DNA of 64,000 nucleotides from assembly GCF_964194025.1 (NCBI RefSeq), contig NW_027452515.1, positions 1-64,000 of the forward strand. The letters are read 5' to 3'. The notes below the pieces were generated by a model, which saw only the letters and a list, made by a program, of their open reading frames with translations, was not told the origin of the DNA and ran no database searches. Of this stretch, positions 14,421 through 56,276 are shown piece by piece. This DNA is from Convolutriloba macropyga (taxonomy: Eukaryota). Numbering within the stretch: position 1 is the stretch's first letter; the number at the start of each line of letters is the position of its first letter. The position numbers were made by a program, and so were the translations under genes.

Positions 14421-14624
14421 GAGTCTCACGTTGCGTAAAAGCAGGTTAGACGCTCTATGAATTTTGTTACTTACTTTCGCTGAGTAATTTATTACTCGGT
14501 AACTTCTTTACTGCTCTTCGGCGGCTTGAATATCAGGTCGTTGTCAATTGGGTTCGGTATAACCCTATTCCCGTGTGATTGTTTGGAACTTATCTTAATT
14601 TGAGAAATCAGCCATTTTAAGATC

Positions 14625-27610: not shown

Positions 27611-27699
27611 ATCTTGGGCGCAGAATGGGATTATTTTCATTCTCATTATCTTCATTACTTGTTCACTTATATGTTGAGCCAAAAAACTTAAAAAAATAA

Positions 27700-28175
27700 A
27701 GGGTCCTGTCCCAGGGTCTACTTGGGGTCTGTTTGGTCTGTCTCAGGTTCTGGCTTGGGTCCGTTTACTGTCTCTGGGGTCCAAGTTCTGTTCGGTGTGG
27801 CAAACAAAGGTTGACTAAGTTGTCTTCAGACTGGCTTCGGTCTGTTCGGTCGAGAGGGTGTCCCAGGTTGAGATGTGCTTAACGATCAGACATTTAAAAA
27901 AGAATGCGGGTGGTATAGTGCGTTTTTGATTACATGGCGTCACTTGGGACTTTTTCATCTGGCTCTGTGTCTTGTCCTGCGTCTTTTCAATCTGGTTGCT
28001 AGAAATAGTCTGATCAGTCTGGCCCAGAGTCTGTTCTTGGGTCTGTTAAGTCTAGTTCAGGCTCTGGTTTGGGCCATTCAAATGACCTGGTTGACCAAAG
28101 TCTGTTGGTTTTGGCACATTCCTGGCTTTCGGTAGCTTCGATCTGAAGCCCCGTATATGACGCAGGTCTGTCTAG
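27700..28175. repeat. Low-complexity degenerate repeat rich in gtct / tctgg / gggtc motifs
   Basis: Repeated short motifs in two blocks. Confidence 0.45.
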
Positions 28176-30760: not shown

Positions 30761-31506
30761 ATTTTTGTTGTTTTAATTACTATTATAAATCATCTCGAGT
30801 TTGTAATTTCCAATGATGTGCGAGTAATTATCCACATAACCAAAATTGAAATTGCGAGCAACAACAAGAATTAACTTATTTCAAGGCAATCTGGTCTGCA
30901 ACAGCGTAAAAGAGTGGAAGTGGGGAAATAGCCGACTAACAAAGTAGCTCTTGCTTCACCATTTCAAAACACTTAGCTCATTTTATTTGATCACTCTTCT
31001 GGGCGACAGAGACCCTCAATGTTGGCCAAGCAGAAATTCAGAAGACGACAAACGCCTCGGCCGGGGTACGAGATCGTAAAATACTTCAACTTGTGATAAA
31101 TCGTTCATGTCCTCTATACTTACTCAGTGCGTCTATTTCCGCTGATTTACTCGTGATGGCAGCCCTTCCAACTCCCCCTTGCTTGACCCCCACTTCCGTT
31201 CACATGCAGTCCATTTTTACTTTAAACCTCTTTTGCCGCTTTTAAACCCTTATTAACAAATATTTCACATCAGAGGAGAATACGAGCAAATAAACATCCT
31301 TCTTAAACACAGTTTTTGAAGTTTTATGCTTCTTTTATTTTGCATTATTTTTTAGTATAGAACTCAGTGCCATTTATCAACTTAAAAAATTTCGGCAACT
31401 TTTTGTAATAATAATGAAAACCGTTAACATGAATCTAGCATTGTTGTTATTATGAAGACATATCACTTTAAGAAGACAAGCACATAAAATCTCCGAACAT
31501 TTTCAG

Positions 31507-31702
31507 TAACAAGCCGGAGAAATTGAGCCTCTCTTTGACCGTGGACAAATCGGACCCAAGCAAGTTTCTCTACGAAGTTGGCACGACCATCACGTGCACC
31601 AAAACCTGGCAAAATTGTATGAAAGACAACAAAATGATTGGAGAGAACAAGTTTGAGTACCTCAAGACATCAATGGCCATGGCTTGTTACTTGTGTTTTC
31701 AA
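31507..31702 (+). CDS. Probable host exon (NKPEKLSLSLTVDKSDPSKFLYEVGTTITCTKTWQNCMKDNKMIGENKFEYLKTSMAMACYLCFQ; phase 2 to 0)
   Basis: cattttcag acceptor, aa|gtaaca donor, 65 open codons with higher GC than the flanks. Confidence 0.55.
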
Positions 31703-31766
31703 GTAACACTTATTTCATATGATAAAGAACGGCCAGATATCGAAACAAAATGCAGTAAGAAATCAG

Positions 31767-31953
31767 GGATCTAGTCTGGAGTCTGATTCCCCCCCCCCGC
31801 CCCCAGTGTTTTTTATGACCCCCAGTTACAATTTCTATGTTGTTACATAGCACGTTACTATGTGAGAAAATAACACGTGCGTCTGGGGGTCATAAAAAAA
31901 TTTATGCTCACTGAGCCGGGGGGGGGGGGGGGGGGACGAAACAGAATAGATCC
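31767..31953 (+). mobile_element. MITE family A, copy 3, with 8-bp TSD GAAATCAG/GAAATCAC (Merlin- or hAT-like)
   Basis: GGATCT...AGATCC termini; flanks 31759-31766 and 31954-31961 match 7/8. Confidence 0.8.
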
Positions 31954-33097
31954 GAAATCACTTTGTTCACGATGCGGCTAATTTGCTACTATACTCAACA
32001 TCAGTTAAGTCTCAGAAAGTTTTTTTTGCTCTCAAGGTTTGAAGCAATTTTTTGGCTCCCGTCTGTCTTTATAGCTAGAAAGCAGTAGCCAAGTTCATAC
32101 AATTCCATAAGAATTTTAATGGTATTGTGGCGCTGATTTTTTTAAAGAGCTGTTCACTCATTTTGATCTTTTTCGGAGTCACTTTAGAGGGATGATATTG
32201 ATCACGTCAAAAAAAGAAGTGAAGTGAGGAAAAGTGTATGGTTTTGTGGTGAGAAGTTATTGAACAAGAGTTAGAAAACCAAATTTGATGAATAAAATGC
32301 CTTCTTGATAACGTTTCTTGTAATAAGACCCATGCCAGCAGTTTGAAAGCAACGCGTCGCCTGTTAGTCTGTTATGCCCTCTAACATATTGAAGCGATTT
32401 TTCAACGAAACTGAAACTCAAGCCGCCATTCGAGCAGAAAGTGTATAAAGTTTTAAAAAGAAATTTTTTGAAGACATTTTTCGAAATATAATTGGAAGTA
32501 AAATTTGGCTAACAAACTGCTTTATGCGTCAATTTTGGATCAACCAATATCTTGGGTCAATTCATACCGGAAAGATAATTTGTCTTTGAGCTGCCTCCGA
32601 AATTGTTTAATGTTTTTTAGACCAATGTGGGGACGATTCGACTTCGGAAAGCTGCTCCTATTGCAGATATAGCACTGCTGTCTTTGGAGTACACACACGT
32701 AAGTGTTTTCTCTAATCTTATACTATACTTAATAATTGCTCTCAAGCGAAGTTTGTAGCAATTATATTAGTCCTGTCGGTCTTTTTATGCGATTTTTCGC
32801 TTGACCGATTTTTCGTCTGACGCTTTTGAATTTTCGTCCTCAAAAACGGGATAAACAGGTACCACCCAGCGGGCATTAAGTGCTCTTAGAGCCATTTAGC
32901 TCTGTTTCAGCTCAAAATGTTTTTAGAGACTTATACTTATACTTATGGTGTGAAGGGCGGTTCTTAGAGGTTGAAGACACCCCCACTGGTGACCCCCCCC
33001 TATTGCCCCACCCCCCACCGCGCTGTCGCCCCCTACCCTAGTGTTCTTCCCCCAAATCTGCTCCCCGGTGTTGTCCTAGGTGTCAAAGAACCCCCCA

Positions 33098-34090
33098 TAG
33101 GGTTTGATAATAGGTTACTGCATTGTTTCTAGTGGTAATGGAATGGTTTCAAAATTTTAACATCACAAATTTCAGCAATTTTTTGACAAAATGTACAATT
33201 TTTTCAAATTTTTGACGTTTTTATCCCTATTCAAGTCTTTTTAGACCTAGGGGCCAGAAAACATTCTAAGGGGGTCGATAACAAAATACTGCAGAACTTC
33301 TAATGGTCAGGGAATAGTTTTTCAAATTTTAATCTCACAAATTTTAGCAATTTTTGTTATGAAACTTGCTTTTTTTAAAATCTTTTTCGGTTTTTTAGAT
33401 TTTTTCAGCGTCAAGAGCCAAGGAACCTCCTCTAGGGTTCTAAAATAGGTTTGAATAATTTTTAGATTAAATAGAATGTCTTGCAAGATTTTAACATATG
33501 TTTCATATTTTAGCATATGTTTCATATTTTTGGCCATTTTTCAATTTTTTGACATTTATACTCATTATTCAGATTTTTTGAACCTCAAAAGTCAGAAAAG
33601 CTCCATTAGAGTTTCATATTAACTTTCTGGAAAATTTTTGGTCATGGAATAATTGTCACTTTTTTAATATCACAAGGTATAGCAAGTTTTTTTTGAAACT
33701 TGCATTTTTTTTCTAAGTTTTTCAAAAACTTTGTCATTTCTTAGGTTTCTCTAGCCTCAAGGGCCTCGGAACTTCTTCTAGGGTTTGATAATATATTACT
33801 GCATAGTTTAGAAATGAAATGGAATGTTCTTCAAGATTTTAATAACACGAAGATAAGAAATTTAAAAAAAATTATTTGCAATTTTTCATATTGTTGATTT
33901 TATCTGGCAAGAGAGGCCCTCGAACCTCCTCCAAGGTTTGGCAATAGGCTGCTGCATAGTTTTTATAGTTAATGGGATGGTGGTCAACTTTTTTTATGAC
34001 TCCAGTTTTAATAATTTTTGGATAAAATTTAAACTTTTCAAATTTTTGGAAAATTTGTATATTCCAAGTTTATGGATCTTCATGAGCCTG
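33098..34090 (+). repeat. Degenerate satellite of ~6 units of ~165-175 bp with dimeric (~340-bp) structure
   Basis: Recurrent (c)tagggtttgataata...actgca motif at ~33098, 33268, 33432, 33607, 33778 and 33934. Confidence 0.7.
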
Positions 34091-36322
34091 GGAAACGATT
34101 TCTGGCTTGGAACAGGGATACCGGATAGTCTCTTGAGACAATGAATTGGCTCTTAAGATATTAGTGTCTTGCGTAATGTCATCATCACTGATCCTCATTA
34201 TCAATGAGTTATAGTTGAAATGTTCTAAATCATAACTGATCTAACAGGCACTTTTTAGGAAACCCTTGTTAATTGCTCTCAAAAGCAATCTGTAGCAAAT
34301 TTATTAACCTTGTTTGTTTTTAAGCAATTTTTTGCTTGGCCGATTTTCGGTCTGACCCATTTGACTTTCGTTTTCATAAACGGGATAAAGATGTAGTGCC
34401 CTGAGGTCACTAAACCTTGGCTAGCTGCTGACGAATCCAACCGCTCGCCGGTCGTTTGAGAGCAATTTGCCCGATATTAGTCGGTTATGATTTTGTTATT
34501 CAAAAATTAACACTCAGATTCACCAATTCATTTTTTAATATTCGCAAAGGGGTAGCTGTCGCTACTATTGGTCGTCTCTTGGCCTTTTACAATTCAAGGA
34601 ATGTGAATTGTTTAGAGACAAAATGTCCATTTTAAAGATCAGTTCACAAATTTTTGTGCTTTTCAATTTCAGGCGGCTATTATTGCGCTCCGAACTTTTT
34701 TTTCAATTCAAAGAATTTGTAATGTTTTCAGGCGCTGCCTTTTTTCAATATCTGTTCACACATTTTTATGATTTTGAAGACAATTTGCAGCGGTGATTTT
34801 GGTCACGCCGAAACAGAAAGTGGAGCGAAAAAACAAGTGGTTTTGCGGTGTGCATCTTTTTCGCTCTAACTTTAAAGTAGAGTGAGAAAACTTTGTTTGA
34901 ACAAAATTCTGTTTCTCGCTCGTTGTTTTTGGTTCGCATGCTGCAATTTCACATTGATTTTTACCGTTTTTTCGGTTTTTTGGATCGGATTTTTTTCTAA
35001 ATGTTTTTCATAACCCATTCATAGTTCATCCTAGTCCTAGTTTTTTGTTAGAACCAAATTTTAATTTCTCGTTAGTGGTTTTTTGCTCAAATTCAGCATT
35101 TTGATTTTGATTTTCTGTTTTTTTTATTTTTTTTATCTGATTTTTTAGAAATTGGTTTTCCAATTAACTCATAGTCCGCTGTAGGTCTAGTTTTTTCTTT
35201 AGTTAATGAAAATTCTCTGAATTTTACGTCAGGACTTGTCTTGCTATGTTGTTTTATTTCGTCTAACAGACTTTTGTTTCGTTATACCCTGACTTCTTGG
35301 AATTGACATTTTCGATGACGTCAGTGACTTCTACTGCTTTGAAGTTAAAATTTGTGTTCGGGACGTCATTTCTGTTTTTATGTCCGTTGCGTGACTTACC
35401 TCACTCAAAAAATGACTTCTGAAGTCACTTATGGAATTTTATATTTTATGAAAATTTAATAATTAAAGGTCAAAAGTGCATCTAAGTAGTGCCAAAATTA
35501 TATGCCCTAATTCCTAGAGTTTTGAGTAATAGAATTTTGGGTTTTAATATCGAATTTTAATTTCGAAAAAACTCCATTAGGGACTCTTCCTTGTAGAGCA
35601 AATTTATCTCATAAAAATGACAGTCTGAATCTAACCCAAAAGTCTATTGGTCAATTAAAAAGTTGGTGGTCGATCTGTCAATCTTATTTCTTTAGTTTTT
35701 CAATTCAAGGTAGGCCACAAGCGTCTATTTTGGCTATTATCCGGCAATCTGCTGGCTATGTTTGAAGTCAAATTAAAGTGATGAATTTGGTTTCCCAAAA
35801 ACAGGAGGTAGAAAAAAGCAAGTGTTCTTGCGGCGTGCGGTTTTTGACACTCTAATTTTAAAGCATGGTGTGAAAACGGTGGTTGAACAAAAATTTGCCT
35901 TCTCGCATGCGGTTCTTTCTTCCAATGGGGAAAATGTGCTTTAAAATTTTTTGTTTAGTTTTCTATTGCATTTTTCTAAATGGTTTTCCCAATCCATTCA
36001 CATTCCACTCCTGTTCTATTATACTGTTTAGTTAATGAAATTTCTTCGAATGTTTGACCAGGATTTGTTGTGCTATGTTTTTTATTTCATTTTCCAGAGT
36101 TTTGTTACGAACAATTGCTATAGGAACAATTTAAATCTTTTTTGGTCAATTAATCATTCGTGCAAGTTCGACTGAATTATAAACCTTAAGTAATGAATTT
36201 TTCTGTTCATTCTCGTGATTAAGTTTTTAGTCACACGTGACTTAGTTCACTCTCAAAAGTGATTTCCTACTATCAAACTGCCTTTTCCTTACTTCAATTC
36301 AATGAGATAAGGTCTAATGAGA

Positions 36323-37563: not shown

Positions 37564-38963
37564 GTAAGTAAACAATTTTTTTTCTGAAAAAAATTTTGAT
37601 ATACATCATGCTAGATCTTGCAAGTCTCTTGCAAGATAAAAGTATCAATTGTAGCAATCCTGCAAGAGTAGGGAAAGGGAAAGCGCTTTTTGAATTTTTT
37701 AATCTGAATTATACAATTTTAATAATTGTTTTGACTACTACAATTTACTGATGAACACTAAGTGACAAATTGATGTTATAATAATAATAATATTTATCGG
37801 ATAAAAGTCCCTCAGTAACCGTTCGTGAATATTGCTTACTTTAAATGCCTATAATTGCTTCGGAATTTTAGAACTCGAGCTCGCGTGTCACCGTCACAAT
37901 TATTCACTATTCAAGTTTTAGACAAAATGCGGATAAATGTGACTAAAGAATGCCTTAAATGTCCGTTTAGGGCGAAAATTTCTAACAATGTACGATTGGC
38001 GACGTAATGTGATGATCACCCATTTATTTTTTTGGACAAAAAATTACTTAAATTAGCCGTTATGCTTAATTATTCGATTGTTTCCTTCCAAAAAGAATTG
38101 ATGTTCTTACCCCACTCGAGGAAACCAGTCGAAAAAGTTTTAAGAATTTATTTTAAGAAATTGCCACTGCCTATTGAAAAGGAGTTTCGTTTCTCATTAC
38201 TTAAGATCTTGAACGCACACGAACTGAAATATGCCACCTAGTTCACAGTTCTCAGTTTAATTATCAGGAGACGATGTCATGAAATTATCCGAAAATTCAA
38301 GAATTTCTGGAAAAACCGGTCGAAAACTTGCATTTCCTTGGCTGAAAAGCACTCATAAGCATTCATATCCTTACAGTACTTGTGAAAACGATAATTTATA
38401 AGTGGCATTTTGACATGTTGTTTATAACTTTTCAATTACAAACTAAGAGCTGTATTTTAGTAATGGATTATAATTTCAAAGGGACACTTTATTTTGATAA
38501 GATAAATGCGACTGCAACAAACTGAAGCCAGATTTGTCTCTAAAATTTGTAGTACTAAGGAGAGCCGGATTAAATGTTTATTAGGAGCAAATAAGGAACT
38601 GTAAACTCCAAACGTCAATATATTATCAGCGCAATACATATTATTTTTCTCATTTACGTGATAATCTATTTTCAAAGATCTGATCTTAATTTGTACTTTA
38701 AAGTCATATAAGTTGTTAACGTACAAGGCAACTCGGTAATGTGCAATTGCACATAAGGTTCCGACCCCGCTCATCCACAATTTTGGCATGATTGTCTACC
38801 AAATGACGAACATAGAAAAACCTAAAAAATCAAGTATTTTTTGGTGTATGAACAAAAAGATAGCCTCCAAAGCAAATAACTCAGTGGTGGAGTGAAAAAT
38901 GGTGCATTAGATTGATGAGATGTGCAAATAATCGGAAAGCGAGTCAAGACGAACAGTAATATC

Positions 38964-38964
<1 letters not shown>

Positions 38965-38999
<35 letters not shown>
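38965..38999. repeat. (AAC)n microsatellite
   Basis: Seen directly. Confidence 0.98.
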
Positions 39000-41510
39000 A
39001 AATTAATTACATCAAAAATTTCATGTCCGTTTTAAAAAACAAAACTTAATAACAAAGTCAAAATAGCGTCAGATAAAATTGATATTAAACAAAAACACTT
39101 TTAATTCACCAGAAAAGATATGGGACTACTCAATAAAAAGGCTTGGTAACAATTAGACAATAAGGAACAAAAACAGTAAAGTTGTAAAATTCGCTTAATT
39201 TTTAAAACAATTAATTTCAAAGTAATGAAAACCATTAGAGATCAACTAAAATATCTCTTAGGTGTAACCTTAACAATTCTTTCATGCAAGGAATTAAGAA
39301 CTGCGAGTATTCAATTTTTTATGCGTATAAAAAAGAACAACAAAAAGAACAAACCAAAAATTCAATTGAAACTTGGCAGGTAACGCTTTCAAAGCCATAA
39401 AGCCATACTATGGCAATCAAAATATGTTCGATTGCACATTTTGCGAGCACCAATAATGTACTATGTAAGCTCTCGTTAATGAAGCTAGGTAGAAAATAGA
39501 TAAAAATAAAAAAAAAGTGCAAAATTTTAAACACTTTAAAATTTTTTTCGAGAAAAAAATTTCCAAAGACATGAAAGCCATTAATTACAAAATGAAATAA
39601 TTAAATAGGTCCCTTTTTTCTTCCAAAGCAAGCCCTTGAGATTTGAAATTACCCAGAATAAATCTTATGTCCACAAAAAGAACTTCAAACATGACAAAAA
39701 ACAAAAATTAGTTTACTTTTTTTCCTTTGTCGAAGCCAGGAAAGTCAACCATTTCTTTAAAAATATTAGATTATGTGACACCAATCCCTCTTGAAACCTT
39801 CTTTTGACAACAATAATGCCATATTTGGCTCGTAATAAACGAGACTAGATAACAAACAGACAATAAAAGGAGCAAAATTGCGAAGTTACAAAGTGTCTTT
39901 TTTTATTTTAAAAAACAATTGTTTTCAGAGTCAAGCTAGCCATCAGCCATCTACTAAAATCAGAATATCGGAACATCTATTCGTCCATGAAAAGCCAATA
40001 AAACTGGCCTATTGTTGTGGAATTTTTATACGTCTAAAAAGACAAAGTAAAAAAGACAGCTGAAGATAAAATTTAAAAAATCAAATAAATTCTTCGAGAA
40101 AGTAGTGTCGAAGCCGCTAAAATCATAATCTATATCTTCCAGGGTTTTAATATTGTCAATTATGCCTGATTTTGAAAACCAATATTGTAATATATTAACC
40201 GTCAAAAACGTGATAATGTGACAAAACTAGACAACGAGAAAAATGGGCAAATACCTAAAAATTTTTTTTTAAAAAATGTGAAATCTGGTAATATTAAATA
40301 CAGAAAACCATAAATTAAGGCGTAAAACCGCAATAAAGGTTGAATTTGATTTCAATAGAAGGAAAAAGCAGTCTTTCAATGCTGACAATAAGCTACAAGT
40401 TGACAAAATTAAGAGAAAAATAGAGGCAAAGTTCTATAAGTCATTACTTTTTTAAAAGTCCAATAATTTTAAAAGTCAAAACAACCATGAGCTTTCAAGT
40501 AATCAACTAGATACAACAATCTGGAGATATTTAGGAATCCAATTGGACCAATCATTAGTGAGCTTTGTTTTGAAATGTTCTGTCATTTAATTAATGTAGA
40601 AAAGTTCGATTTTTTTTAATAAAAAAGACCGGCTGATTACAATCCGAATCATTTTTATACTAGTCCACGATTGGTCCAAAACTAGCCCTGCTAATGCTGT
40701 TTGCCCATTAGGAACACTTAATTATTCGAGTGTTCTAGATATTGAGATTTAGTTAGTTAAAAACACAAAAATAGATGCTGCGTTTTTGATAATCAACGAA
40801 TAAAATTAGCAATAAACGGCAACGCAGAGCACTCTCAACGGAATTTGAAGAAGAAAATCCCCATTTTGAGTCTAAAAAGATTGTGTTAGTGGTGGTTGGG
40901 TCTGTACTTGGTGTAAATTTAATCAAACTGGACGAAAAAAATTTATTTCGTGCTGTTTTTGATGGAAAAGTCTGAATTTTGAAACATTTAGCCAGATTCT
41001 TTTGACAAAAAAAAAATAACAAAATAGCCTACAATGTAGTTTTTTGTCTTTACAAATTAAAATCAACAACACTTTTTGAAGAAAATAACAAATTTTATCA
41101 AAATTGGTCAAGTTTTATTTAAAAATTCCGGAAAATGTGAATAAAATCTCACCGGAATTCACTCTATTTTCTCAAAATTTAAACCTCGATGACTCCCTGT
41201 AAAAAACGAAATTAAAAAAAATCTTTTTATTTCTATATTCTGCGCTGGACAAGCTTTCTAATGATAGCAGTCTCAACTCTGTACGATGAATATCTCGATC
41301 GGCCAAAATTGACTGAACAAAAAAAACCTATTTGAGTATATAGTTCCTTCCCCCTCAAGAGGGGTCGGAACAATAAATTGTTTTGTAAGATTTCATCAAC
41401 TTTTAAGCTCTTATAAGAAATAATTTATTAAACTCGCTGCCTTAAAGGGTTTTTCTGGTAATGTTTTATTTGACAATCTTTTGACTGAGGAGAAAGCATC
41501 ACTATGAGTA

Positions 41511-41748: not shown

Positions 41749-42041
41749 TATTACTAGATTACCCATAGTGAAGTCAATAGGCTTCTCATTCGCTTTTGTC
41801 TAATCTCCACAAATACTAAGGAAAATATTTTGTTAACATATTAGCAAGAGAAGCCATGTGTTAGGCAAGTTTGGTTTTGTTAACTAAATAAATTACGAGC
41901 CAGCGCCACTATCCTAAATTAACATTGCGCAAATTTTTGGAACATCGCGGCAAAAAACAAAGATGTATAAATACCCATCAATATAATCGTTGCTTTGCCA
42001 CCATATCCTAAACGGTTCGATGACAATATACCCAATGCCAT

Positions 42042-43623
42042 TATAGAATCTGAATATTTAGGGTGGAGGTTTAACCCTATTCCCAATTCCACAATTGTTC
42101 TTAGAATCTATCTTTAGAGAAAACTACTGGACTGGATAGTAACTTCACTCCTACTCTTACCTACTACTCTTAACTAGACTAAAGGGTTATACCAGGCCCT
42201 CCGTTCAAGTCCTAAAGAAAGTATTTTCAGGCGCTATAGAACTGTAGTCAATTGCCAATAATAATGATGATATTAGAATATGATTGTAATGCCTCTCTAT
42301 GTTGTATGATATTTTCGCTTCTAAGAAGTGTTTTACCAAATGAAATAAATTGGTGACTCTAAGATTGAGAATTATACTAAATTATTAATCGATCAACCAA
42401 TATACATAAAACAAATAGTAGATGAAGTGAAGAGCTCGTCGGTGTTCACTCCACAACCCAACCAGACGAGTGTTTACTAACTCGATAGAACGTTAAGACA
42501 TTGCCCATCAGGTACTTCAGGTTACTGCAGACCGTTTTAATTGTCCACTTGGTTCACCATTCCATACTACATGGGTTAACTTAACTTGCAGGCCTACCCT
42601 CAGAGTGGCTTCACTATGCTGTCTCCTAGAAAGAGCTTGGCCGATTATTACTCTCAAAAATCAATCGTCTTCATGTTGTCAGGGATTGGATGCTGTCCGC
42701 CAGTTCGTTAACCTAACTTAACCTAATTATTGATTGGTTGATCACTAGTCACCAAACTAATTTAAATCCAATAAACTGAAGCTAGATTGAGTATGATTTC
42801 AGATCCTTAGAGATGTATTGTGAAATTACTAAAGTTGTACAATTACACTTTTGATTTACAGAAAACCGAGAAAAACGATTAAGTTTTACCCAATCTTAAT
42901 TACTACAAGGCTATGCTTCCTTCAGAACAACTAGTTACAAATGCCTATGAGTGCCAAGTATCGAAGCGTTTAGCAAATACCTAAGAGATACCAATTTAAG
43001 CTCTACTAAGTTACAAAAAAAGGTCTAAAAAGAGAAAGTAGTGGAAAATTTTCTAAGTTAATTTAACGAAAAGTATAGTTACCAGAGTATACTAGTTCAA
43101 ACAATTATTACAATTTTCAGTTCCACGACAGAGATCTGTTAACTCACTCGTCTAATAAAATTTACTCCGCAATTTGGATTATCACGACAATATAATTATT
43201 TTCAGACTGCTTTTGGTTACAAAAATTGGCTAAAATTGAGCCGTATATATACTGCTTATCTATGTTTGGTTATGATAGTTTAGTCCTATTTTTACCAAAT
43301 ATTCCGAATTTTTTTGTGAAGAATACCTTTTTGGGAAAAAATTTTCAGAAGTTCATTCAAGACGTTAATAACCTAGGCCCCTAATTTGGGTTTCTAATCC
43401 AATATTACGTGGGTGAGAATTTTGACGTTCAATCTATGATATAATCTTTATCAGAGTCCATATTTACCTATTCAACCGTTCTCATCAGTTTAAATTTTTT
43501 CACCATTAATATCTTTGTACAGTTTCAATTTTAGAATTCGCTTTTGTGTTGGGAATAATTCAAGGTCAGTATTAATTTGGTTCTTTTCCGAAAAACGCAT
43601 AAGTTTAACTTTCCATTCCTACA
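42042..43623 (-). repeat. 3' LTR of Gypsy element (1582 bp)
   Basis: Near-identical to 54171-55767 apart from scattered substitutions and one ~16-bp indel. Confidence 0.95.
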
Positions 43624-43635
43624 TCCCACCCATCC
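43624..43635 (-). promoter_or_regulatory. Polypurine tract (ggatgggtggga on minus strand)
   Basis: Abuts the TG start of the 3' LTR. Confidence 0.75.
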
Positions 43636-43665
43636 GGACTAAACTATTCTCCTGAATAGTACAAA

Positions 43666-45789
43666 TTAGTATAACGTAAAAATATATAAAAGCACTAACA
43701 CCATATGTTGGTACGACAGTTTTTTTAGATCAGCGTTTGTCTCCTCATCGCGCATTCTCTCAACTAAGTTTAGTCTCTCTTCAAACTGCATGTGAGTTCC
43801 CATATCTAGTTGATCATCGTTGGACAAACTGCGAATACGTTTTGTAGTATTTTTGGACTTGTAACACTTCTTCGCTGCCCAGACAGCCAAAGGACAAATG
43901 CAAGACACCATAAGGAGAAACCAAGCAGACCAGCCAGTTCTTTAATTGTATGCAGTGTTGACCCATGACGAAAGGATTTGAAGTTGGTTTCCTCAGAAAT
44001 TCGTTGATGGATTTTGTCTACCAGGCGTGACATCAAACGTAGCGACATCCTTGAATGCCGATCTGATCTTATGCAACATCAAATTCTGACTCTCTTCCGT
44101 AGGAGTGATCACTGGAATGCTCGGGATGTTGAAAGCGGTATCCAGTAGTTCGGGAGTTGTGATTGTAGTTAATAGTCCACAGTGTTGAAGACAATATGCT
44201 GGATTGGGCAACATGACTAGTCCATTATTCGGGTGAACCAGTTTTCCATCGCAGGGGGGATGTACTAGGCAACTTTTACAGGCTGGTACACAGTTGAAAA
44301 CTTTCTGCCCCCACTGTACGTTATGTTATAAAGAAATTGTTGATCGTCTGCCGCGTTGAGAAGGTACATAGACTTCCCAAGGTAGATTGCTGTCGGTAAA
44401 ATTGGCAATTCGGTTACTTCTCGTGTGCAAGTCTTCAAAGCAGCTACCTTGTGATTGTATAGGAGTGAAGTCAAGCAGAGTTCATCTTGCGCGCTCACCA
44501 ACGCTACTGGCTTGGTGCAAAGTATCAGCAATTGTGTCCTCAAACAAGACAGATATTCCTCACTCTTCATTTCGGCATGATTATCTTCTCACCTTGATAC
44601 GATCAAATAGTTCCTTTCTAATTTTAGAGTTGCGGCCGTCGTTGTGTTCTTGATTGGTTGTGGCAGAGGGATTGCTTTGTAGGCATCGTGAATTGGTTCA
44701 CCACTGTATACTGGCACCTCCATTGTGATTAACAGTCCGTGTGGAGTGGAAGAAACCTTTCTCACTAAGGGCAGGCTGTAAAGTAAACTTGAGTGGTCGT
44801 ATGGTATAGAATACTTTTTTTATCTCCCAGCTTCTTCAGAGTTTTAATTATTTTCCGTAAATCCTCGTAGGGTACTAGTGCGGCTGGCAGTATTCCCTTG
44901 GATAGCAATCCAAGGCTTGTAATAAATATGTATCTCTGTTCCGTCAAATATAGTGTTTGTAGTTGCAACTCGTTGTGCATAGCATCGAGAGTCCATGATA
45001 CGTGGTTAAATGCACTTTGGGCGCAAAAGGCATACATAAAAACATCAGAACTTCGATGATCACAGGCTTGGGCTTGTTCTATTTCTTCCATTGTTTTTTG
45101 AAGCACCTCCAGGTTTGTTTGCAGAATCTCAAGGCTATTCTCTGAGCAGTTTAACACTTTTCGTGTGTCTTCATGAAGCTTCAAACTACTGCTGGCCATT
45201 ACCTGAATAGTCTATGTGTCTTCGTTGTGCAGGTGAACCATTCTTGATTCCAAATAGTGCAATCGTCCTTCCAATTGTTCCATCTTTCGCACAGACCAAA
45301 AATTGAGAGTAGTCTACAGCCTGCCAGTAAGGATTCTAAAGTTAACGCCGTCGCAGCTCCGATTGCAAACAGCAGTGGTGATCGTCTCTGTCGCTGAAGA
45401 GTGATAGTATGGTTTACAAAAGATGCTACTTCTTTGACAAGCTTTGTCCTCCTCTCTTTCTCCGCTCTTTCGTATTCTATCTGAATAGATGAGATTATTC
45501 CGTCAAAGTAGTGCTGTAATAGTGCGCTTATTTCTGGGTTGTTGCAAAACTGGGAGCGCTTGCATGTTTTTTGTTCCAATTGCTGAAGTATTGTAGAGAA
45601 TTTATAAATTGGTCGGAGATCCACGTTCAACAGCTTTGGAAGTGTGCCTGCGATATCCACAGTAAGATATGAGTCGGCCAATGAAACTGGAGTTTGAGGT
45701 TGGAAGAGAACATGCGCAGTAGTTCGTGCAATCTCCGCTGTTTGCTGTCGCCCCGCAAGTTTTAATGTAAATATCATAAAGTTGTACAT
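43666..45789 (-). pseudogene. env: env/F-like class I fusion glycoprotein, complete copy (copy 3), frameshifted
   Basis: Furin site RQRR followed by hydrophobic SPLLFAIGAATALTLESLLAG, heptad-like helix, LSKGILPAALVPYEDL, Cys-rich region, C-terminal TM-like LAGLLGFSL/MVSCICPLAVWAA and a basic tail; located between pol and the 3' LTR. Confidence 0.85.
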
Positions 45790-45925
45790 CTAAACATTAT
45801 TATGGTTAATTACTGCGCTAAACCTAGATAGCATTTTTTCTGTATTATAAAGAGTGCTACATTCTCTAATAATTCCCCCCTAAAGCAATGGAGTTTACTG
45901 TTTTGTCAGTTTTGGTTCCCAAAAG

Positions 45926-47268
45926 ACAGATATTCATCACTCTTCATTTAGGCACAACTTTCTTCTCGCCTTGATACGATCAAATAGTTCCTTTCTAATT
46001 TTAGAGTTGCGGACGTCGTTGTGTTCTTGATTGGTTGTGGCAGAGGGATTGTTTTGTAGGCATCGTGAATTGGTTCACCACTGTATACTGGCACCTCCAT
46101 TTTGATTCACAGTCCGTGTGGAGTGGAAGAAACATTTCTCACTAAGGGCAGGCTGTAAAGTAAACATGAGTGATCGTATGGTATAGAACACTTTTTTATC
46201 TCCCAGCTTCTTCAGAGTTTTAGTTATTTTTCGTAAATCCTCGTAGGGTACTAGTGCGGCTGGCAGTATTCCCTTGGATAGCACTCCAATGCTTGTAATA
46301 AATATGTTTCTCTGTTCCGTCAAATATAGTGTTTGTACTTGCAACTCGATGTGCATAGCATTGAGAGTCCAAGATACGTTGTTAATTGCACTTTGGGTGC
46401 GAGAGGCATACATAAAAACATCAGACCTTCAATGATCACAGGCTTGGGCTTGTTCTATATCTTCCATTGTTTTTTGAAGCACCTCCAGGTTTGTTTGCAG
46501 AATCTCAAAGTTATCCTCTGAGTAGTTTAGCACTTTGCGTGTGTCTTCATGAAGCTTCAAACTACTGCTGGTCATGACCTGAATAGACTCTGTGTCTTCG
46601 TAGTGCAGGTGAACCATTCTTGATTCCAAATAGTGCAATCGTCCTTCCAATTGTTCCATCTTTCGCTTAGAACTTTCGCACAGACCAAAAATTGAGAGTA
46701 GTCTACAGCCTGCCAGTAAGGATTCTAAAGTTATCGCCGTCGCAGCTCCAATTGCAAACAGCAGTGGTGATCGTCTCTGTCGCTGAAGAGTGATAGTCTG
46801 GTTTAAAAATGATGCCACTTCTTTGACAAGCTGTGTCCTCCTCTCGTTCTCCGCTCTTTCGTATTCTATCTGAATAGATGAGATTATTCCGTCAAAGTTG
46901 TGCTGTAATAGTGGGCTTATTTCAGGGTTGTTGAAAACTGGGAGCTCTTCCATGTTTTTTGTTCCAATTGCTGAAGTATTGTAGAGAATTTATAATTTGG
47001 TCGGAGATCCACGTTCAACAGCTTTGGAAGTGTGCCTGCGATATCCACAGTCAGATATGAGTCGGCCAATAAAACTGGAGTTTGAGGTTGGAAGAGAACA
47101 TGCGCAGTAGTTCGTGCAATCTCCGCTGTTTGCTGTCGCCCCGCAAGTTTTAATATAAATATCATAAAGTTGTACATCTAAACATTATTATGGTTAATTA
47201 CTGCGCTAAACCTAGATAGCATTTTTTCTGTATTATAAAGAGTGCTACATTCTCTAATAATTCCCCCC
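45926..47268 (-). pseudogene. env: env 5'-part duplicate (copy 2; chimeric, no TM)
   Basis: Tandem repeat with 1388-bp period; ORF pieces 46917-47177, 46429-46953 and 46075-46413. Confidence 0.9.
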
Positions 47269-47313
47269 TAAAGCGATGGAGTTTACTGTTTTGTCAGTTT
47301 TGGTTCCCAAAAG

Positions 47314-48656
47314 ACAGATATTCCTCACTCTTCATTTAGGCACAACTTTCTTCTCGCCTTGATACGATCAAATAGTTCCTTTCTAATTTTAGAGTTGCGG
47401 ACGTCGTTGTGTTCTTGATTGGTTGTGGCAGAGGGATTGCTTTGTAGGCATAGTGAATTGGTTCACCACTGTATACTGGCACCTCCATTTTGATTAACAG
47501 TCCGTGTGGAGTGGAAGAAACAATTCTCACTAAGGGCAGGCTGTAAAGTAAACATGAGTGGTCGTATGGTATAGAACACTTTTTTATCTCCCAGCTTCTT
47601 CAGAGTTTTAATTATTTTCCGTAAATCCTCGTAGGGTACTAGTGCGGCTGGCAGTATTCCCTTGGATAGCACTCCAATGCTTGTAATAAATATGTTTCTC
47701 TGTTCCGTCAAATATAGTGTTTGTACTTGCAACTCGATGTGCATAGCATTGAGAGTCCAAGATACGTTGTTAATTGCATATTGGTTGCGAGAAGCATACA
47801 TAAAAACATCAGACCTTCGATGATCACAGGCTCGGGCTTGTTCTATATCTTCCATTGTTTTTTGAAGCACCTCCAGGTTTGTTTGCAGAATCTCAAAGTT
47901 ATCCTCTGAGTAGTTTAGCACTTTGCGTGTGTCTTCATGAAGCTTCAAACTACTGCTGGCCATGACCTGAATAGACTCTGTGTCTTCGTAGTGCAGGTGA
48001 ACCATTCTTGATTCCAAATAGTGCAATCGTTTTTGCAATTGTTCCATCTTTCGCTTAGAACTTTCGCACAGACCGAAAATTGAGAGTAGTCTACAGCCTG
48101 CCAGTAAGGATTCTAAAGTTATTGCCGTCGCAGCTCCAATTGCAAACAGCAGTGGTGATCGTCTCTGTCGCTGAAGAGTGATAGTCTGGTTTAAAAAAGA
48201 TGCTACTTCTTTGACAAGCTTTGTCCTCCTCTCGTTTTCCGCTCTTTCGTATTCTATCTGAATAGATGAGATTATTCCGTCAAAGTTGTGCTGTAATAGT
48301 GGGCTTATTTCAGGGATGTTGAAAAACTGGGAGCTCTTGCATGTTTTTTGTTCCAATTGCTGAAGTATTGTAGAGAATTTATAAATTGGTTGAGATCCAC
48401 GTTCAACAGCTTTGGAAGTGTGCCTGCGATATCCACAGTAAGATATGAGTCGGCCAATGAAACTGGAGTTTGAGGTTGAAAGAGAACATGCGCAGTAGTT
48501 CTTGCACTCTCCGCTGTTTGCTGTCGCCTCGCAAGTTTTAATATAAATATCAGACAGTTGTACATCTAAAAATTATTATGGTTAATTACTGCGCTAAACC
48601 TAGATAGCATTTTTTCTGTATTTTAAAGAGTGCTACATTCTCTAATAATTCCCCCC
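47314..48656 (-). pseudogene. env: env 5'-part duplicate (copy 1; no TM)
   Basis: ORF pieces 48305-48565, 47463-48356 and 47336-47530. Confidence 0.9.
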
Positions 48657-48950: not shown

Positions 48951-51900
48951 TTATTCGTCGTCGATTCCGAATCCTTTTGGGTACTTCACTGCGCGTCTTT
49001 CTCGTGTTTTAGCGATGGAGTTTACTGTTTTGTCAGTTTTGGTTCCCAAAAGTTCTGCAAATGTTTTTGGTTTGCACATTTCCCTCTTGGCGCTTATAGA
49101 TGTTGACTGTGTTTCACTGAGGTCCCTCAAGACAATTTTTGGCTTGTGTGGTCTTTGGGGCAGTGGTGTAGAATCAATCTCTTTGGCTGGGGTTACAAAA
49201 GGGGTCTTGTTTTCTTGTGTTTTGTCTTGTTCCGGAGTGATCGGTTCTGCTGGTATCTTAGTCTTAGTGGGCCTTTTAGTTGAATGTTCTCGCTCTGCAA
49301 AGAGATCATAGAAAAATTCTCCATCCTCGTTAATCCATTTGAAGGGACTCTCTTGTTTGGGTCGTCTTGATGTAATTTCTGGGGTGAAAGTTTTATTGTT
49401 TTCTTCAATGTGAATTTCCTGGTCACACGTATTTTGGCGTCTGAGCCATTTCTCTTGATGAGATGATCTTGTTTCCATTCTGGGTAACTCGTCTTCCTCC
49501 TTCACAGCCTTCAATCGATTGTAGTGGACTATCTGCCCTTTCTTGAGTTGTGTCTTTTGAGATTTTTTAGTTGACTTCTGAGGTCCTTTCGATGATGTTA
49601 TATGGTCCGATCCAGGGAAGAAAAAAACTTCCTTGATTTTGCTTTTTGGGGTGCGAAAAGCCAAACTTTCTCTCCTGGCTTTAGTTCTTCTTCAAAGACG
49701 TTTTTCTGATACTAATCTTTTTGTCTTCCTTGTCTGTAGCCAAGGTTCTCTCTGGCATTCATATGTGCGTCCCCAATTGTTCATTGAGCCATCTTGTGAT
49801 TTCGTAGTTGGCAATTTCGTGACCAGGTTGCTTTCGGGAGTAGCAGGTCAATCGGGTATTTGCATTCTTGTCCAAACAAAAGTGAGAATGGAGTCTGTCC
49901 TGTTGTTTTGTGTACGGTCGTATTATAGACGAAGTTGAGATAGGGAATCATTTGATCGCAGCTACTTGGATTGTTTGCGCAGTATTTGGAAATAACATCA
50001 GCATCAACTCTGTTGTGACGTTCTACCATACCATTTCCCTAAGGGTGATATGGAGATATTCTTGTCTTCTCTATTCCAAAAATTTTGCACACTTCTAGTA
50101 GTAGTTCGCTGCAGAAGTTTGCTCCTTGATCGGTGTGAAGGCAATCATGTGCTCCAAACGTCAAAACCCAGTTCTCCACAATTGCTCTAGCAACATCTTC
50201 GGCCGTAGTTCTTTCTAAGGGAACGCAAACCACGTATTTCGCGAAATAGTCCGTCAATACGAGTATGTGTTTTGCACCGCTTGCCTTTGCTCGGGTAACA
50301 GGTCCAAGGGTATCTGCTGCCATTTTGCTGAATCGGATCCCAACGTTGATTGTCTGGAGAGGGGCTATTCTTTTCTTTCCAGCGTTACTTCGTGCTTGAC
50401 ACAGGGTGCAGTTCTCACATTTTCGTTCAATGTCTATTCTTATTTTTGGCCACCAAAACCTCTGTCTTGCCCTGTCCAAGGTCTTTTGAAAAGCAAAAAT
50501 GGCCTCCACTGAGTTTTGAATCGTGAAGTTGTTCCAAAACTGTCTCTCTGAGTCCCTGCGGTACTATAAGTTGTTTTTGAGTTGTATTGCTTCCTTCTAC
50601 ATGCCACTTCCTTTACAGCACGCCATCAGTTAGTTCCATCTGGTCCCAGAGGCCCCACATCGCTACTGCATCTTCTCCTTGTGCTATTGCGTTTGTCTTC
50701 TTGATTTTTAAGTCTCTCAGCGGATTTTGGTCTGGATGTTTCTCAGCGTTTGCCCATTGCAAGATGAGACGTAAGCAGGTATCGTTTCTTTGAGCCAGCC
50801 TAAGTAAATTTACGTCTTCTTGAAATTGGATACTCATTGGTTCGTTCGCGTCCTGGGCTGTAACTGAGTTTATTCTTACGAGCGCGTCTTCCAAAGAGTT
50901 AGCTGATAGGCAACTTCCAAACATAACCAGTCTCTCGGCTTCAGTTAGCTCAGGTGTGATGCTGCACTGTCTTGACAGTCCATCTGCATTCCCGTGCTTG
51001 TCTCCTGGTCTATGTACTACTTGAAATTTGAATTCTTACAGTCTTTGAAGCATCCTGAATATTATCCCGTCCTTGTTTTGTCTAAATAACCACTGTAGCG
51101 ATGCATCATCTGTTCTGAGCACAAATTGAGTTCCCCAAAAGTAAGGCTCAAACCATTCCATCGCCTGAATGACTGCTAATGCTTCTCTTTCTGTTGTTGA
51201 GTAACGACATTCTGCTGGCGTCAAAACTCTGCTCGCGAAAGCGACTGGGTATTCTACTTCATCTTCATTATTAGAGAGCACTGCCCCTAGACTGTTGTCA
51301 TTTGCATCCGTGTCCAGGATAAAAGGAGAGTTGTACTCCGGATGCTTGAGTACTGAGCTATCAATCAAAGCCTCTTTCAGGTTCTCGAACGCATTATGGC
51401 ATTCAGGGTTCAAGTGAAACGGCTGTTCTTTTTCGTTATCTGGTGAAGAGGTTTCGCTATCCCAGCAAAGTCTTTGATGAAACGTCTGTAGTGATTGCAA
51501 AATCCAATAAAAGACCTCACTTCGGTAACGTTTTCTGGTCTTTTCCAGTACCGTAATGCACCGAGTTTGTTTTCATCTGGTGCATTTACCTCTGGGCTCA
51601 GTTTGTATCCTAGATAGGTTACGAATTCTTGAAAGAGGCGACATTTCTTGGGCTTGAGTTTAAGATTGGCCTGGCGAAGAGCGTGAAAAACGAGGCGCAT
51701 GTGTTTTTCGTGTTCCTCCACATTTTTACTAAACACCAGAACGTCGTCCAAGAAGATGAGGACAAACGAGAAGAGATATTCATTGAAGATACTTGTCATC
51801 TGTATCTTCAAGTCGCTGGAAGGTTCCCGGTGCATTGCAAAGTCCGAATGGAAGTCTGAGGTACTCGGAGTGTCCACCATCGGGAGTGACGAACACAGCT

Positions 51901-52931
51901 TTGGTATAGCACTTTCAGCTAAAGGGACTTGCAAATATCCAGAGGCTATGTCGAGGCTTGAGAAAATCATTGCTCCATGAAGATGATCCAGTATCTGGTC
52001 AATTCGCGGAAGGGGAAAAATGTCTTTCTTTGTCACTTCGTTTAGTCGTCGGCAGTCTGTGCACATTCGATTGCTCCCATCCTTTTTGGAAACGAGAACG
52101 ATTGGCGCACTGTACGGGCTGTTTGATTGTCGGATAATGTTTAGGGCCAGCATGTCCTCAATCTCCTTCTTAACCACAGTGATCTTTCCAGGTGCAAGTC
52201 TATGGGGAGAAAGCTTGATGGGCAGCGTATCACCTGTATCAATTTCATGCTGAAACAAGTGTGTCTTTCCAAGTTCCTTGTCGTTCATTACAAACACATC
52301 TCTGAACTCTCGTAGCAGTGTTCTTCTGTCGTCTGTTTGTTGGTTTCTGTCTGGAATTGCTAAAGAATAAATCTGTTCTAAATCTTCATCGCATGATAGG
52401 ATTAGGCTTGTTTCTGCAATTACCCCGTGCTGTGTTTCTTCCGTTGTTTCGATTTGATCAAGACCGGATTCTGCATCCGTCTAACAAAGATGTACGTGCC
52501 TGGGGACTTCAGTTCTATCGGCAAATTGCAAGTTTACAACATTGTTTTTTTTTCTCCATCATCAGCTGCTTTGAATGGAAGTCGATTGATACTTTATTCA
52601 GCTCCATCACTTGGGTTCCAAGTATCAAAGGCAAGTCTGTGTTCGGGGTCACCAAGAGATCGGTTTTCACTTTAACCCCGGTGCCGAACTTTATTTCGCC
52701 AGTGAAAACACCAAGTATTTGGAAAGGATCATTGGTGGCCGAAAGAACTTCTTCTCGGAATGGTCTGAGTTTGGAACGCTGTTCGTACTGTGAGTAAGCT
52801 TTTTCTGATAGAATGTTCACATTGCTCCCAGTATCCACTAACGCTTTGTGTTTTTGTCCGTCAAGATCAACCATCACGTAGACTGTAGGTCCAAAGACTG
52901 GTTCGGCTTGAACTTTGCTGATACTGCTCAC
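48951..52931 (-). pseudogene. pol: Ty3/Gypsy pol (protease, RT, RNase H, integrase, long charged C-terminal tail), frameshifted
   Basis: ALVDTGS; SPYSAPIVLVSKKDGS, FPLPRID, IFLDDVLV; FILDTDA, YSTTEREALA; RFWWP, CTLCQ, LHTDQGANF, VERHNR. Confidence 0.95.
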
Positions 52932-52952
52932 TTGCTCTGAGTTCGCTCTCTG

Positions 52953-54062
52953 TCAAATGCTTTTTACGATTGGTTGTCTATCGGTGTCCAAGTTTGCGGA
53001 TATACCCAGTTGTTTTGTTCCTTTCTGTGGACACTGATTTGAAAAGTGCCCAAACTCGCGGCAATTATAGCACTGCATCGCAGACGTTCTGGGTAGAGAG
53101 CCTTCCGGTCTTCCCGGACTTCTACTCTTAAATCTGGTTTGACTTGATTCAGATAGAAAACTTGTTTGGGTCTCAAGGATCTTCTCCATGATCTGTGTAT
53201 GTCGCTCTTGCTGCTCTAGCATCTGATTGAAGCCTCTGGTCTGAAACTCGATCATTTGATTGAAACCCAATGACAGAGGGGTGCTAAGTGCTCTAAAGTC
53301 AGCTTTTTCTGACTCATCATGATCTTGTTCACCCTTTGTTCATCTCACATGTCCGTTTCTTCGTCCTCGCAGTCGACTGGATTCCGCTTTACTGATGGCG
53401 TCTAGAGCAATGGCCCGTTGTGTAGCTGCATTGAAGCTGCATTGAGTATACATCTGATTTTGCTGTCCAACAGTCCATCCATAAAGGCATCTTTGTTAGC
53501 TTCCTGTGGTCCCGCAACATAACGATGAGCATTGGTTGCCTCTCCTAACTTACGAACTTGCCTTGAGAACTCTTGGATTGACTCTGATTCCAATTGCTGA
53601 AGATTTTTGAATTCGGTGCGGGCACTCCTTGCTTTCGGAAAGTCGCCGATTCTGTTGTTAAGAGCGTTCAAAACTCTCGCTATGGTCGGGGCTGGTTGTC
53701 CTTGCACTTGTTGAAAGTAATGATTGGGGAGATTATAATACTCATCTAACGCATAAGTGTTCAAACACGTGGGTAGGACCTCGCGTTGTCTCTGGTCATC
53801 CCAATTATTGGCAGTTGACATTGATTCGAAGTGTCTAACCCATCTTTCGAAGCTATCGAAGTCGCGGCTAGGGTATCGGAGGGGGTTGAGAAGGGGTGGT
53901 GCTACGACTATTTGTTGTTGATTGTTCGCCTGGTTCTGTTGTTGCTGTTGCCAGTTGTTTGGTGCGTTGTTCTTTTTTGGTAATTGAAGTAATTTTCGAT
54001 TTAAAACCAAATGACACGGAAAAAAATATATAGATGAGTTTTACTTTTGGAACGTATTCCAA
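52953..54062 (-). pseudogene. gag: Ty3/Gypsy gag with CCHC zinc knuckle
   Basis: FERWVRHFE..ANNW capsid-like motif, QLESESIQEF MHR-like motif, CYNCREFGHFSNQC. Confidence 0.9.
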
Positions 54063-54159
54063 AGATCTAATTCACTTGTTCTCTCAAATTCTAATTTTAC
54101 GTTTTTTTCTTTTTTTAATGTAAAATGCAAAACGGCCTTCTAATCAGAAGATTCTCTCT

Positions 54160-54169
54160 GTGGTCGCCA
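54160..54169 (-). promoter_or_regulatory. Primer-binding site TGGCGACCAC (tRNA-Arg type)
   Basis: 1 nt from the 5' LTR end; complementary to a ...GUGGUCGCCA 3' end as in animal tRNA-Arg. Confidence 0.75.
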
Positions 54170-54170
54170 A

Positions 54171-55767
54171 TATAGAATCTGAATATTTAGTGTGGAGGTT
54201 TTACCATATTCACAATTCCACAATTGTTTTTAGAATCTATATTTAAAGAAAACTACTGGACTGGATAGTAACTTCACTCCTACTCTTATCTACTACTCTT
54301 AACTAGACTAAAGGGTTATACCAGGCCCTCCGTTCAAGTCCTAAAGAAAGTATTTTCAGGCGCTATAGAGCTGTAGTCAATTGCCAATAATAATGATGAT
54401 TTTAGAATATGTTTGTAATGCCTCTCTATGTTGTGTGATATTTTAGCTTCTTAGAACTGTTTTACCAAATGAAATAAATTGGTGACTCTAAGATTGAGAA
54501 TTATACCAGGTCCTCAATTAACTTTCTAATTAATCGATCAACCAATATACTTAAAACAAATAGTAGATGAAGTGAAGAGCTCGTCGGTGTTCACTCCACA
54601 ACCCAACCTGACGAGTATTTACTAACTCGATAGAACGTTAAGACATTGCCCATCAGGTACTTCAGGTTACTGCAGACCGTTTTAATTGTCCACTTGGTTC
54701 ACCTTTCCATACTACATGGGTTAACTTAACTTGCAGGCCTACCCTCAGAGTGGCTTCACTATGCTGTCTCCTAGAAAGAGCTTGGCCGATTATTACTCTC
54801 AAAAATCAATCGTCTTCATGTTGTCAGGGATTGGATGCTGTCCTCCAGTTCGTTAACCTAACTTAACCTAATTACTGATTGGTTGATCACTAGTCACCAA
54901 ACTAATTTAAATCCAATAAACTGAAGCTAGATTGAGTATGATTTCAGATCCTTAGAGATGTATTGTGAAGTTACTAAAATTGTACAATTACACTTTTGAT
55001 TTACAGAAAACCGAGAAAAACGATTAAGTTTTACCCAATCTTAATTACTACAAGGCTAAGCTTCCTTCAGAACAACTAGTTACAAATGCCTATGAGTGCC
55101 AAGTATCGAAGCGTTTAGCAAATACCTAAGAGATACCAATTTAAGCTCTACTAAGTTACAAAAAAAGGTCTAAAAAGAGAAAGTAGTGGAAAATTTGCTA
55201 AGTTAATTTAACGAAAAGTATAGTTACCAGAGTATACTAGTTCAAACAATTATTACAATTTTCAGTACCACGACAGAGATCTGTTAACTCACTCGTGTAA
55301 TAAAATTTACTCCGCAATTTGGATTATCGCGACAATATAATTATTTTCAGACTGCTTTTGGTTACAAAAATTGGCTAAAATTGAGCCGTATATATACTGC
55401 TTATCTATGTTTGGTTATGATAGTTTAGTCCTATTTTTACCAAGTATTCCGAATTTTTTTGTGAAGAATACCTTTTTGGGAAAAAGTTTTCAGAAGTTCA
55501 TTCAAGACGTTGATAACCTAGGCCCCTAATTTGGGTTTCTAATCCAATTTTACGTGGGTGAGAATTTTGATGTTCAATCTCTGATATAATCTTTATCAGA
55601 GTCCATATTTACCTATTCAACCGTTCTCATCAGTTTAAATTTCTTCACCATTAATATCTTTGTACAGTTTCAATTTTAGAATTCGCTTTTGTGTTGGGAA
55701 TAATTCAAGGTCAGTATTAATTGGTTCTTTTCCGAAAAACGCTTAAGTTTAACTTTCCATTCCTACA
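54171..55767 (-). repeat. 5' LTR of Gypsy element (1597 bp)
   Basis: Direct repeat of 42042-43623. Confidence 0.95.
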
Positions 55768-56276
55768 GCCATTATGCCCAGTGTACTTTGATATTCTCTT
55801 TCAAATAATTTAATCCCATGCTCGGTTGTAGTAGTTTCATATCAAGCCCTACGGGCCTCTGAGGCAGGACCATGTCCCTTACGTAAACATATAATCGGCA
55901 TTGGGTATATTGGCATTCGGTGAAATGGAATTGGTTAAATTGCCTGGACACCATCCCACACATTAAGGCCACTTATATGTATTATGATATGTTTCATGGA
56001 GTTAATGAGGTAAAATGTACGAAATGATTCATTTTGTTTAGCAGGGGCTGACTAGTAATGTTGACATTGTTCCAATATTATGCTTGGAGGAATTCCGTCT
56101 TTTTAATGACTTTGATCTCTCAATGTAATTCATCCTAAGAAGCCTCCTAGACTTTTTAATATTGGAAGCAATAGTTGTCAAAACTAATTTGGGATTGAAA
56201 AGCTTTTTTCATTCTCTATCTATGGAAAATTTGAATTCTCCAAGCGGTAGCTTTTGTGAAAGATGCTATTACAACC

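Follow-up and report, generated by a model that had tools for sequence, protein, structure and literature searches.

We analyzed a window of 64,000 nucleotides (nt; positions 1 to 64,000 of contig NW_027452515.1, assembly GCF_964194025.1) from Convolutriloba macropyga, a convolutid acoel (Xenacoelomorpha), and found in it a dead copy of a Ty3/Gypsy retroelement with an envelope gene (env) region between pol and the 3' long terminal repeat (LTR). This copy very probably represents an acoel family with a predicted class I envelope protein of the fusion (F) type, which would let particles enter other cells and which likely came down, along with pol, from an old ancestor that already carried env, a so-called ancient errantivirus. 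Ty3/Gypsy elements with an F-type env have been described in many animals, though apparently not in Xenacoelomorpha until now.

A Ty3/Gypsy family with a predicted F-type env

The window element occupies positions 55767-42042 on the minus strand (13,726 nt) and is arranged as LTR, primer-binding site (PBS), gag, pol, env region, polypurine tract (PPT), and LTR between target-site duplications (TSDs) of ATGGC. Pfam searches of its gag and pol pieces identified a CCHC zinc knuckle (PF00098, E = 1.6e-6), an aspartyl protease (PR), reverse transcriptase (RT), RNase H (RH), and integrase (IN) in Ty3/Gypsy order. The LTRs, PBS, PPT, and TSDs, together with a PR-RT-RH-IN order containing a single RNase H, identify the element as Ty3/Gypsy (Metaviridae). 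An earlier note, made from the letters of the window alone, had already described a CCHC Gag, an arginine-type PBS, a 5-bp TSD, and 1.6-kb LTRs, and each of these descriptions held up.

A DNA search of the host genome returned 40 scored matches among 140 candidates, which were 87 to 94% identical to the element apart from the query itself. For copy anatomy, we sampled 30 copies with their flanks. In 28 of the 30, the 5' LTR was followed by a PBS whose first 13 letters differed at one position at most, while one copy carried two changes and one had no PBS. The 3' end of a host gene family with 28 exact matches, identified by ARAGORN as tRNA-Arg(TCG), is complementary to the family PBS; a tandem array of tRNA-Arg(TCG) genes with a spacing of ~410 nt lies at 20.08-20.14 Mb of C1. 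Matching 5-bp TSDs flanked 13 of the 22 copies in which both ends were resolved (30 examined), and the LTR pairs of sampled copies were 91.7 to 99.75% identical. In three of four runs, contigs covered the LTR end at L058:7670-8400 at ~10 times the depth of the internal region; depth is not a copy number, but the excess hints at many solo LTRs.

To characterize the envelope protein, we used the naturally open reading frame (ORF) of 696 amino acids (aa) at locus L016 rather than the fragments in the window. This protein has an N-terminal hydrophobic segment, an RQRR motif at residue 132, long helices, 15 cysteines, seven sequons, and a transmembrane segment at ~628-650. The features of an F-type protein were all recovered (signal peptide, furin site, fusion peptide, heptad helices, cysteine-rich head, transmembrane segment, and F fold), with the signal and fusion peptides judged from sequence alone. 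Using Pfam, we detected Baculo_F (PF12259) in the L016 protein at E = 6e-5, below the cut-off; a relative 91% identical to it passed the cut-off, and 9 of 70 members of the env homologue alignment matched this family. None of the seven env fragments of the window element scanned matched a fusogen Pfam family. Atlas placed Baculo_F and Fusion_gly clusters at the top for the L016 protein (0.95), with a low recognition score that makes this match weak taken alone. The profile of the env alignment matched a "fusion protein" in the Protein Data Bank (PDB; 9w4d/9w4c) at E = 1e-11.

Structural comparisons led to the same class. An AlphaFold2 monomer model of the L016 protein (pLDDT, 82.4; pTM, 0.72) was searched with Foldseek, and all 42 PDB rows listed were F proteins of respiratory syncytial virus (RSV) or human metapneumovirus (hMPV), the best at E = 4e-9. 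In BFVD, the best matches were baculovirus F, chu-like, and abalone-herpesvirus proteins (E, 1e-18 to 1e-16). Alignment of the model to hMPV F with VIA-align gave a Z of 10.4 and a root mean square deviation of 6.7 over 362 residues. By predicted fold, the family envelope is a class I F-type fusogen; the profile and structural matches support the claim of the earlier note of an F-like env in a Ty3/Gypsy element. The acoel protein resembles baculovirus F (PF12259) and pneumo-/paramyxovirus F (PF00523) in predicted fold and processing motifs. It differs from them in that structural sequence identity is only 6 to 15% and the gene is carried by a retroelement.

Related families and the origin of env

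Searching the genome with distant env homologues revealed many loci with open frames of ~680-800 aa. We took ten of these other loci and found RT- or pol-like ORFs upstream in nine and a CCHC gag ORF in eight. They represent five families (A, A2, B, C, and D), all with a furin motif and a hydrophobic peptide. Their env proteins were 25 to 29% identical to that of the window-element family, and their RTs were 56 to 63% identical, with family D at 49%. Open gag, pol, and env frames were present in these sister families, where gag and pol lie in different frames; in the window-element family they share one frame, as seen in one sister copy of the element. In two family-A copies, the LTR pairs matched at 100% and 99.9% over the ~920 nt covered, which we read as evidence of apparently recent mobility in the sister families. 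A simple pattern search of the sister families did not find their PBS motifs. One family-B locus (L124; C2, ~17.26 Mb) has pol and the 3' part of env in a single open frame of 1513 aa, apparently via an internal deletion.

We constructed phylogenies of RT and env after removing near-duplicates (4 of 131 RT rows and four acoel env sequences); 37 rows were dropped in a careful RT tree, and the RT of family D (49% identity) was left out of the RT trees. In the RT phylogeny, which the earlier note had called for, the five included families formed one clade (100/100) with unnamed sequences, apart from named RTs of molluscs, echinoderms, arachnids, fish, and frogs. In the env phylogeny, all six families fell into one clade (99) with four unnamed proteins. 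Because a related env is present in all six families and the two trees are congruent, env predates the split of the families.

This history bears on the proposal of the earlier note that the window element may represent an independent capture of env, which was not supported: the genome contains at least five more gag-pol-env families whose F genes are related to that of the window-element family. A version in which the window-element family alone acquired its env recently could draw on the low identity (25 to 29%) of that env to those of the other acoel families. However, RT and env give the same order, with the window-element family outside A/A2/B/C in both, and we regard such a lone capture as very unlikely.

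Capture might instead have happened once and independently, with the acoel lineage taking F from an unknown marine virus and all acoel families descending from that event, not from an ancestor with env that other phyla have in common with acoels. The clade that the six acoel env genes form with four unnamed proteins, the separation of acoel RTs from the named mollusc, echinoderm, arachnid, and vertebrate ones, and the exogenous invertebrate viruses among the best structural matches would all suit this scenario. Yet more distant full-length relatives with the same furin and fusion-peptide layout (20 to 26% identity) are closer in sequence than is any viral family in Pfam, and the combination of an Arg-UCG primer with an F-type env recurs in polychaetes (PMC13524379). 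Viral contigs also yielded no relative in a search for close relatives with a single env protein (six pattern matches, none confirmed); the env alignment contained no conserved stretch suited to a search of this kind. We consider a single acoel capture improbable. No more probable, in our view, is a broader proposal in which acoels have their own old and still mobile radiation of env-bearing retroelements, spreading as infectious particles between somatic cells and the stem cells of the adult from which the germ line is made, and with F captured independently of other phyla. The likely alternative is that acoels inherited F from an ancestor that they share with other phyla.

Published elements provide the context for shared inheritance. 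The survey of Chary and Hayashi (eLife 2026; PMC13524379) reports 1512 env-bearing Ty3/Gypsy elements across metazoans, including an "ancient" group with an F- or gB-type env and a bridge made of RNase H and a mini domain. An Arg_UCG primer with an F-type env is recorded there for nine polychaete elements and one springtail element, among 36 element rows with an Arg match, and the springtail element has LTRs of ~1.25 kb. In our model of the family bridge, RNase H is followed by helices (205-258) and three short strands (263-266, 269-275, and 282-287), with no second RNase H. This predicted arrangement corresponds to the mini-domain bridge of ancient errantiviruses. The model contains neither the duplicated pseudo-RNase H of insect errantiviruses (gypsy/ZAM/17.6) nor the dual RNase H (tether plus acquired RH) of Retroviridae and lokiretroviruses. 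Between pol and the 3' LTR, the family also has an ORF for an env-like fusogen, broken in the window copy. Such an ORF is part of the operational definition of an errantivirus in PMC13524379, which further asks for gag, pol, and env to be intact together in one copy.

The window-element family fits these published "ancient errantiviruses" by its F-type env, its mini-domain bridge, and its Arg-UCG primer, the last as in polychaete members. The likeness extends to gag-pol-env order, a Ty3/Gypsy pol, an F ectodomain with a furin site and fusion peptide, multicopy families, and congruence of env and pol, while the host phylum differs, Xenacoelomorpha being absent from the text and seven supplements of the survey. 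Drosophila gypsy and ZAM share the three-gene layout and an F-type env with the acoel family. In contrast, according to the same survey, insect errantiviruses mostly have Ser, Lys, or Leu primers and a duplicated pseudo-RNase H, whereas the acoel family has an Arg primer and a mini-domain bridge. The view that the element is unlike typical insect errantiviruses was right for those of Drosophila, but the same features are at home in the ancient group, with its Arg_UCG primers and F-type env. Another relative in kind is TelKA of bdelloid rotifers (Rodriguez et al. 2017; PMC5408684), a Ty3/Gypsy element with an ORF3 resembling paramyxovirus F, whose product likewise has an RXXR site, fusion peptide, coiled coil, cysteines, and a transmembrane segment. 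TelKA differs in its host phylum and in carrying a dUTPase between PR and RT; no dUTPase was matched in the pol pieces of the window element scanned with Pfam.

The text and seven supplements of PMC13524379 do not mention acoels or Xenacoelomorpha, and the literature that we searched, which did not extend to repeat databases, held no description of env-bearing elements from acoels. Of two further papers, one screened two xenacoelomorph genomes for retrovirus-like RTs (PMC9040795), and the other reported that Gypsy elements account for 28% of the genome of a different acoel, in passages that do not speak of envelopes (PMC6451197). Because of that share, spread by way of env may be one contributor to the size of acoel genomes. 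Xenacoelomorpha are central to early bilaterian evolution and absent from the PMC13524379 survey, yet this one genome holds at least six families with an F-type env. They fill a gap in the case for an origin of env-bearing Ty3/Gypsy elements before bilaterians radiated.

Several observations weigh against our reading of an inherited, F-type envelope that serves entry into cells. TM-scores of the model to solved F proteins are modest (TMq, ~0.3). The fusion-peptide stretch of the L016 protein is less hydrophobic than that of the window units and fails a 19-residue hydropathy threshold, and its signal peptide also falls below a threshold of that length. The RT and env trees were built without the published errantivirus sequences of PMC13524379, so they give no placement in a named clade such as A1-A11 of that survey. 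Finally, the search for intact copies suggested by the earlier note succeeded for env alone. Only 1 of the 30 sampled copies (of 140 candidates) has a fully open env, two others have a single stop in it, and none has all frames open, so the family may be largely extinct.

Selection on env and a proposed infectious cycle

If env served the element while the family was spreading, its coding sequence should bear the mark of selection. We counted variants by column in 27 of 31 copies, setting aside four with internal env duplications, and compared ratios of nonsynonymous to synonymous variants (pN/pS). In env, pN/pS was 0.19 for variants common to at least three copies and 0.86 for singletons (Fisher P = 1e-13). 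The corresponding values were 0.13 and 0.89 for Gag-PR-RT and 0.17 and 0.91 for RH-IN. Singletons are near neutral, as expected for decay after insertion, while variants common to at least three copies arose during replication of the family. Because the shared-variant ratio of env (0.19) is close to those of the other regions (0.13 and 0.17), env was kept about as strictly as the enzymes, demonstrating purifying selection during the spread of the family. This test, made for one family, is a line of evidence other than the intact frames and folds from which the sections of PMC13524379 covered here argue function. The description of the element as potentially infectious can accordingly be upheld for the family, where selection points that way, but not for the window copy.

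We propose the following cycle for the family. Env would be translated from a spliced subgenomic RNA, as Drosophila gypsy env is. Five of the six families have a TTAG no more than 25 nt before the env ATG (chance, 0.09-0.17 each), which suggests a candidate splice acceptor. Contigs of four runs were compared with leader-to-env, and the 15 of 56 joints listed included no such joint, which is evidence neither for nor against splicing. An expression look-up listed no RNA holder, which likewise speaks neither way. The N-terminal signal would then direct Env into the secretory path, where a furin-type protease may cut it at RQRR. The protein would presumably trimerize, and membrane fusion could be driven by its heptad helices together with the hydrophobic peptide that the cut has exposed. 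Particles from somatic cells might in this way reach germ-line or stem cells. Acoels rebuild their germ line from stem cells of the adult and so offer a natural test of env in soma-to-germline entry outside insects. The model for such entry is the soma-to-germline infection known for Drosophila gypsy (PMC13524379).

The window copy, its decay, and neighboring sequences

All features of the element lie on the minus strand. The 5' LTR (54171..55767; comparison of the LTRs gave termini of TGTA...CTATA) is preceded by its TSD (55768..55772), and the 3' LTR (42042..43623) is followed by the other (42037..42041); the LTR pair is 97.7% identical over 1581 aligned nt. The PBS (54152..54169) retains its first 14 nt intact. 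Downstream of it lie gag (52953..53972), which has a CCHC zinc knuckle and is broken, and pol (48954..52952), which encodes protease, RT, RNase H, the mini-domain bridge, and integrase. A PPT-like stretch (43624..43641) abuts the 3' LTR. Compared with the naturally open frames of sister copies, gag-pol has accumulated a total of 10 frameshifting indels and eight stops, and the full-span env unit has five frameshifting indels and two stops. The window copy is a decayed relic.

Self-comparison of the window showed a pair of 1.6-kb direct repeats; within 43666-48656, where the earlier note had seen a third ORF, it showed a tandem repeat of 1388 nt. The RQRR site, hydrophobic stretch, long helices, cysteine-rich region, and C-terminal transmembrane segment that it described are there, but they do not belong to one ORF. 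Instead, the region has three tandem copies of the 5' part of env, with frameshifts. Unit 1 (47306..48565; RQRR at 48170-48159), whose ATG is directly preceded by TTTAG, and unit 2 (45918..47177; RQRR at 46782-46771) are truncated after codons 1-420 and are 97% identical. Unit 3 (43729..45789; RQRR at 45393-45382) has the full span and is broken; its transmembrane-coding stretch lies at ~43937-43887. At the end of unit 1, ~40 nt from the 3' end of pol are joined to env by microhomology (47271..47308), followed by a deletion of ~340 nt relative to unit 1, and a second copy of this junction lies at 45884..45920.

A sister insertion at 8.35 Mb of chromosome C1 (L034; C1:8352421-8364676) has the same TSD and flanks that match at 92 to 94% identity, on one side over 3.7 kb or more. 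It carries the same microhomology junction between env and the end of pol, but only two env units, of ~1.75 kb. Relative to it, the window version has lost ~340 nt from the second unit and has then duplicated that unit again. The series of events would be a microhomology-mediated tandem duplication after insertion, a deletion, and a second duplication. Two other copies (L040 and L084) carry unrelated internal env duplications, so such duplications are ordinary decay, and the triplication reflects decay after insertion, not design. One could still suppose that the host had domesticated the truncated units, which lack a transmembrane segment, as a secreted restriction factor or fusogen: they retain the signal, furin site, and N-terminal helices, and the insertion is shared with C1, where env has two units. 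But frameshifts and stops interrupt every env unit of the window, and the duplications in L040 and L084 show that the arrangement is not special; we give domestication almost no credence.

We rejected the 97.7% LTR identity as a measure of the age of the window copy, given that the LTRs of the C1 sister are ~92% identical and the two versions differ by ~8%. The contrast suggests LTR homogenization, together with a segmental duplication of old date or else very high heterozygosity. The flank match to C1 ends just before a second, multicopy LTR element of the BEL/Pao type, which may be specific to the window version of the locus. It begins at 56333, ~560 nt from the 5' LTR of the window element, and runs through 64000 to ~67100 in contig C3419, with minus-strand gag and pol ORFs, ~1-kb LTRs from 56333 and 63869, and a further match at 66073.

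Other repeats also lie in the window. A BEL/Pao-like element, named by the appearance of its ORFs, lies on the plus strand at 11696-21958; its gag and pol ORFs are fragmented, and its direct repeats of 440 nt (96%) are separated by 9.8 kb. The window element stands beside or within an AT-rich repeat of more than 2 kb (38700-41000) that has many copies at 80 to 87% identity, and short AT-rich repeat families, both dispersed and tandem (period, 37-170 nt), occupy 12731-14074 and 26477-36109. Marker genes agree with the identity of the host. The sole full-length COX1 in the assembly reads in the invertebrate mitochondrial code and matches that of the acoel Symsagittifera roscoffensis at 91%, against at most 69% for named matches outside acoels, and two HSP70 proteins encoded on chromosomes, identical to records from a convolutid acoel, tie the chromosomes to it. 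A COX1-like chromosomal segment (L032; C13, 6.187 Mb) gave no such tie: its best match is an unnamed protein (86%), closer to it than the COX1 of the acoel itself, and the segment is possibly foreign organellar or bacterial DNA.

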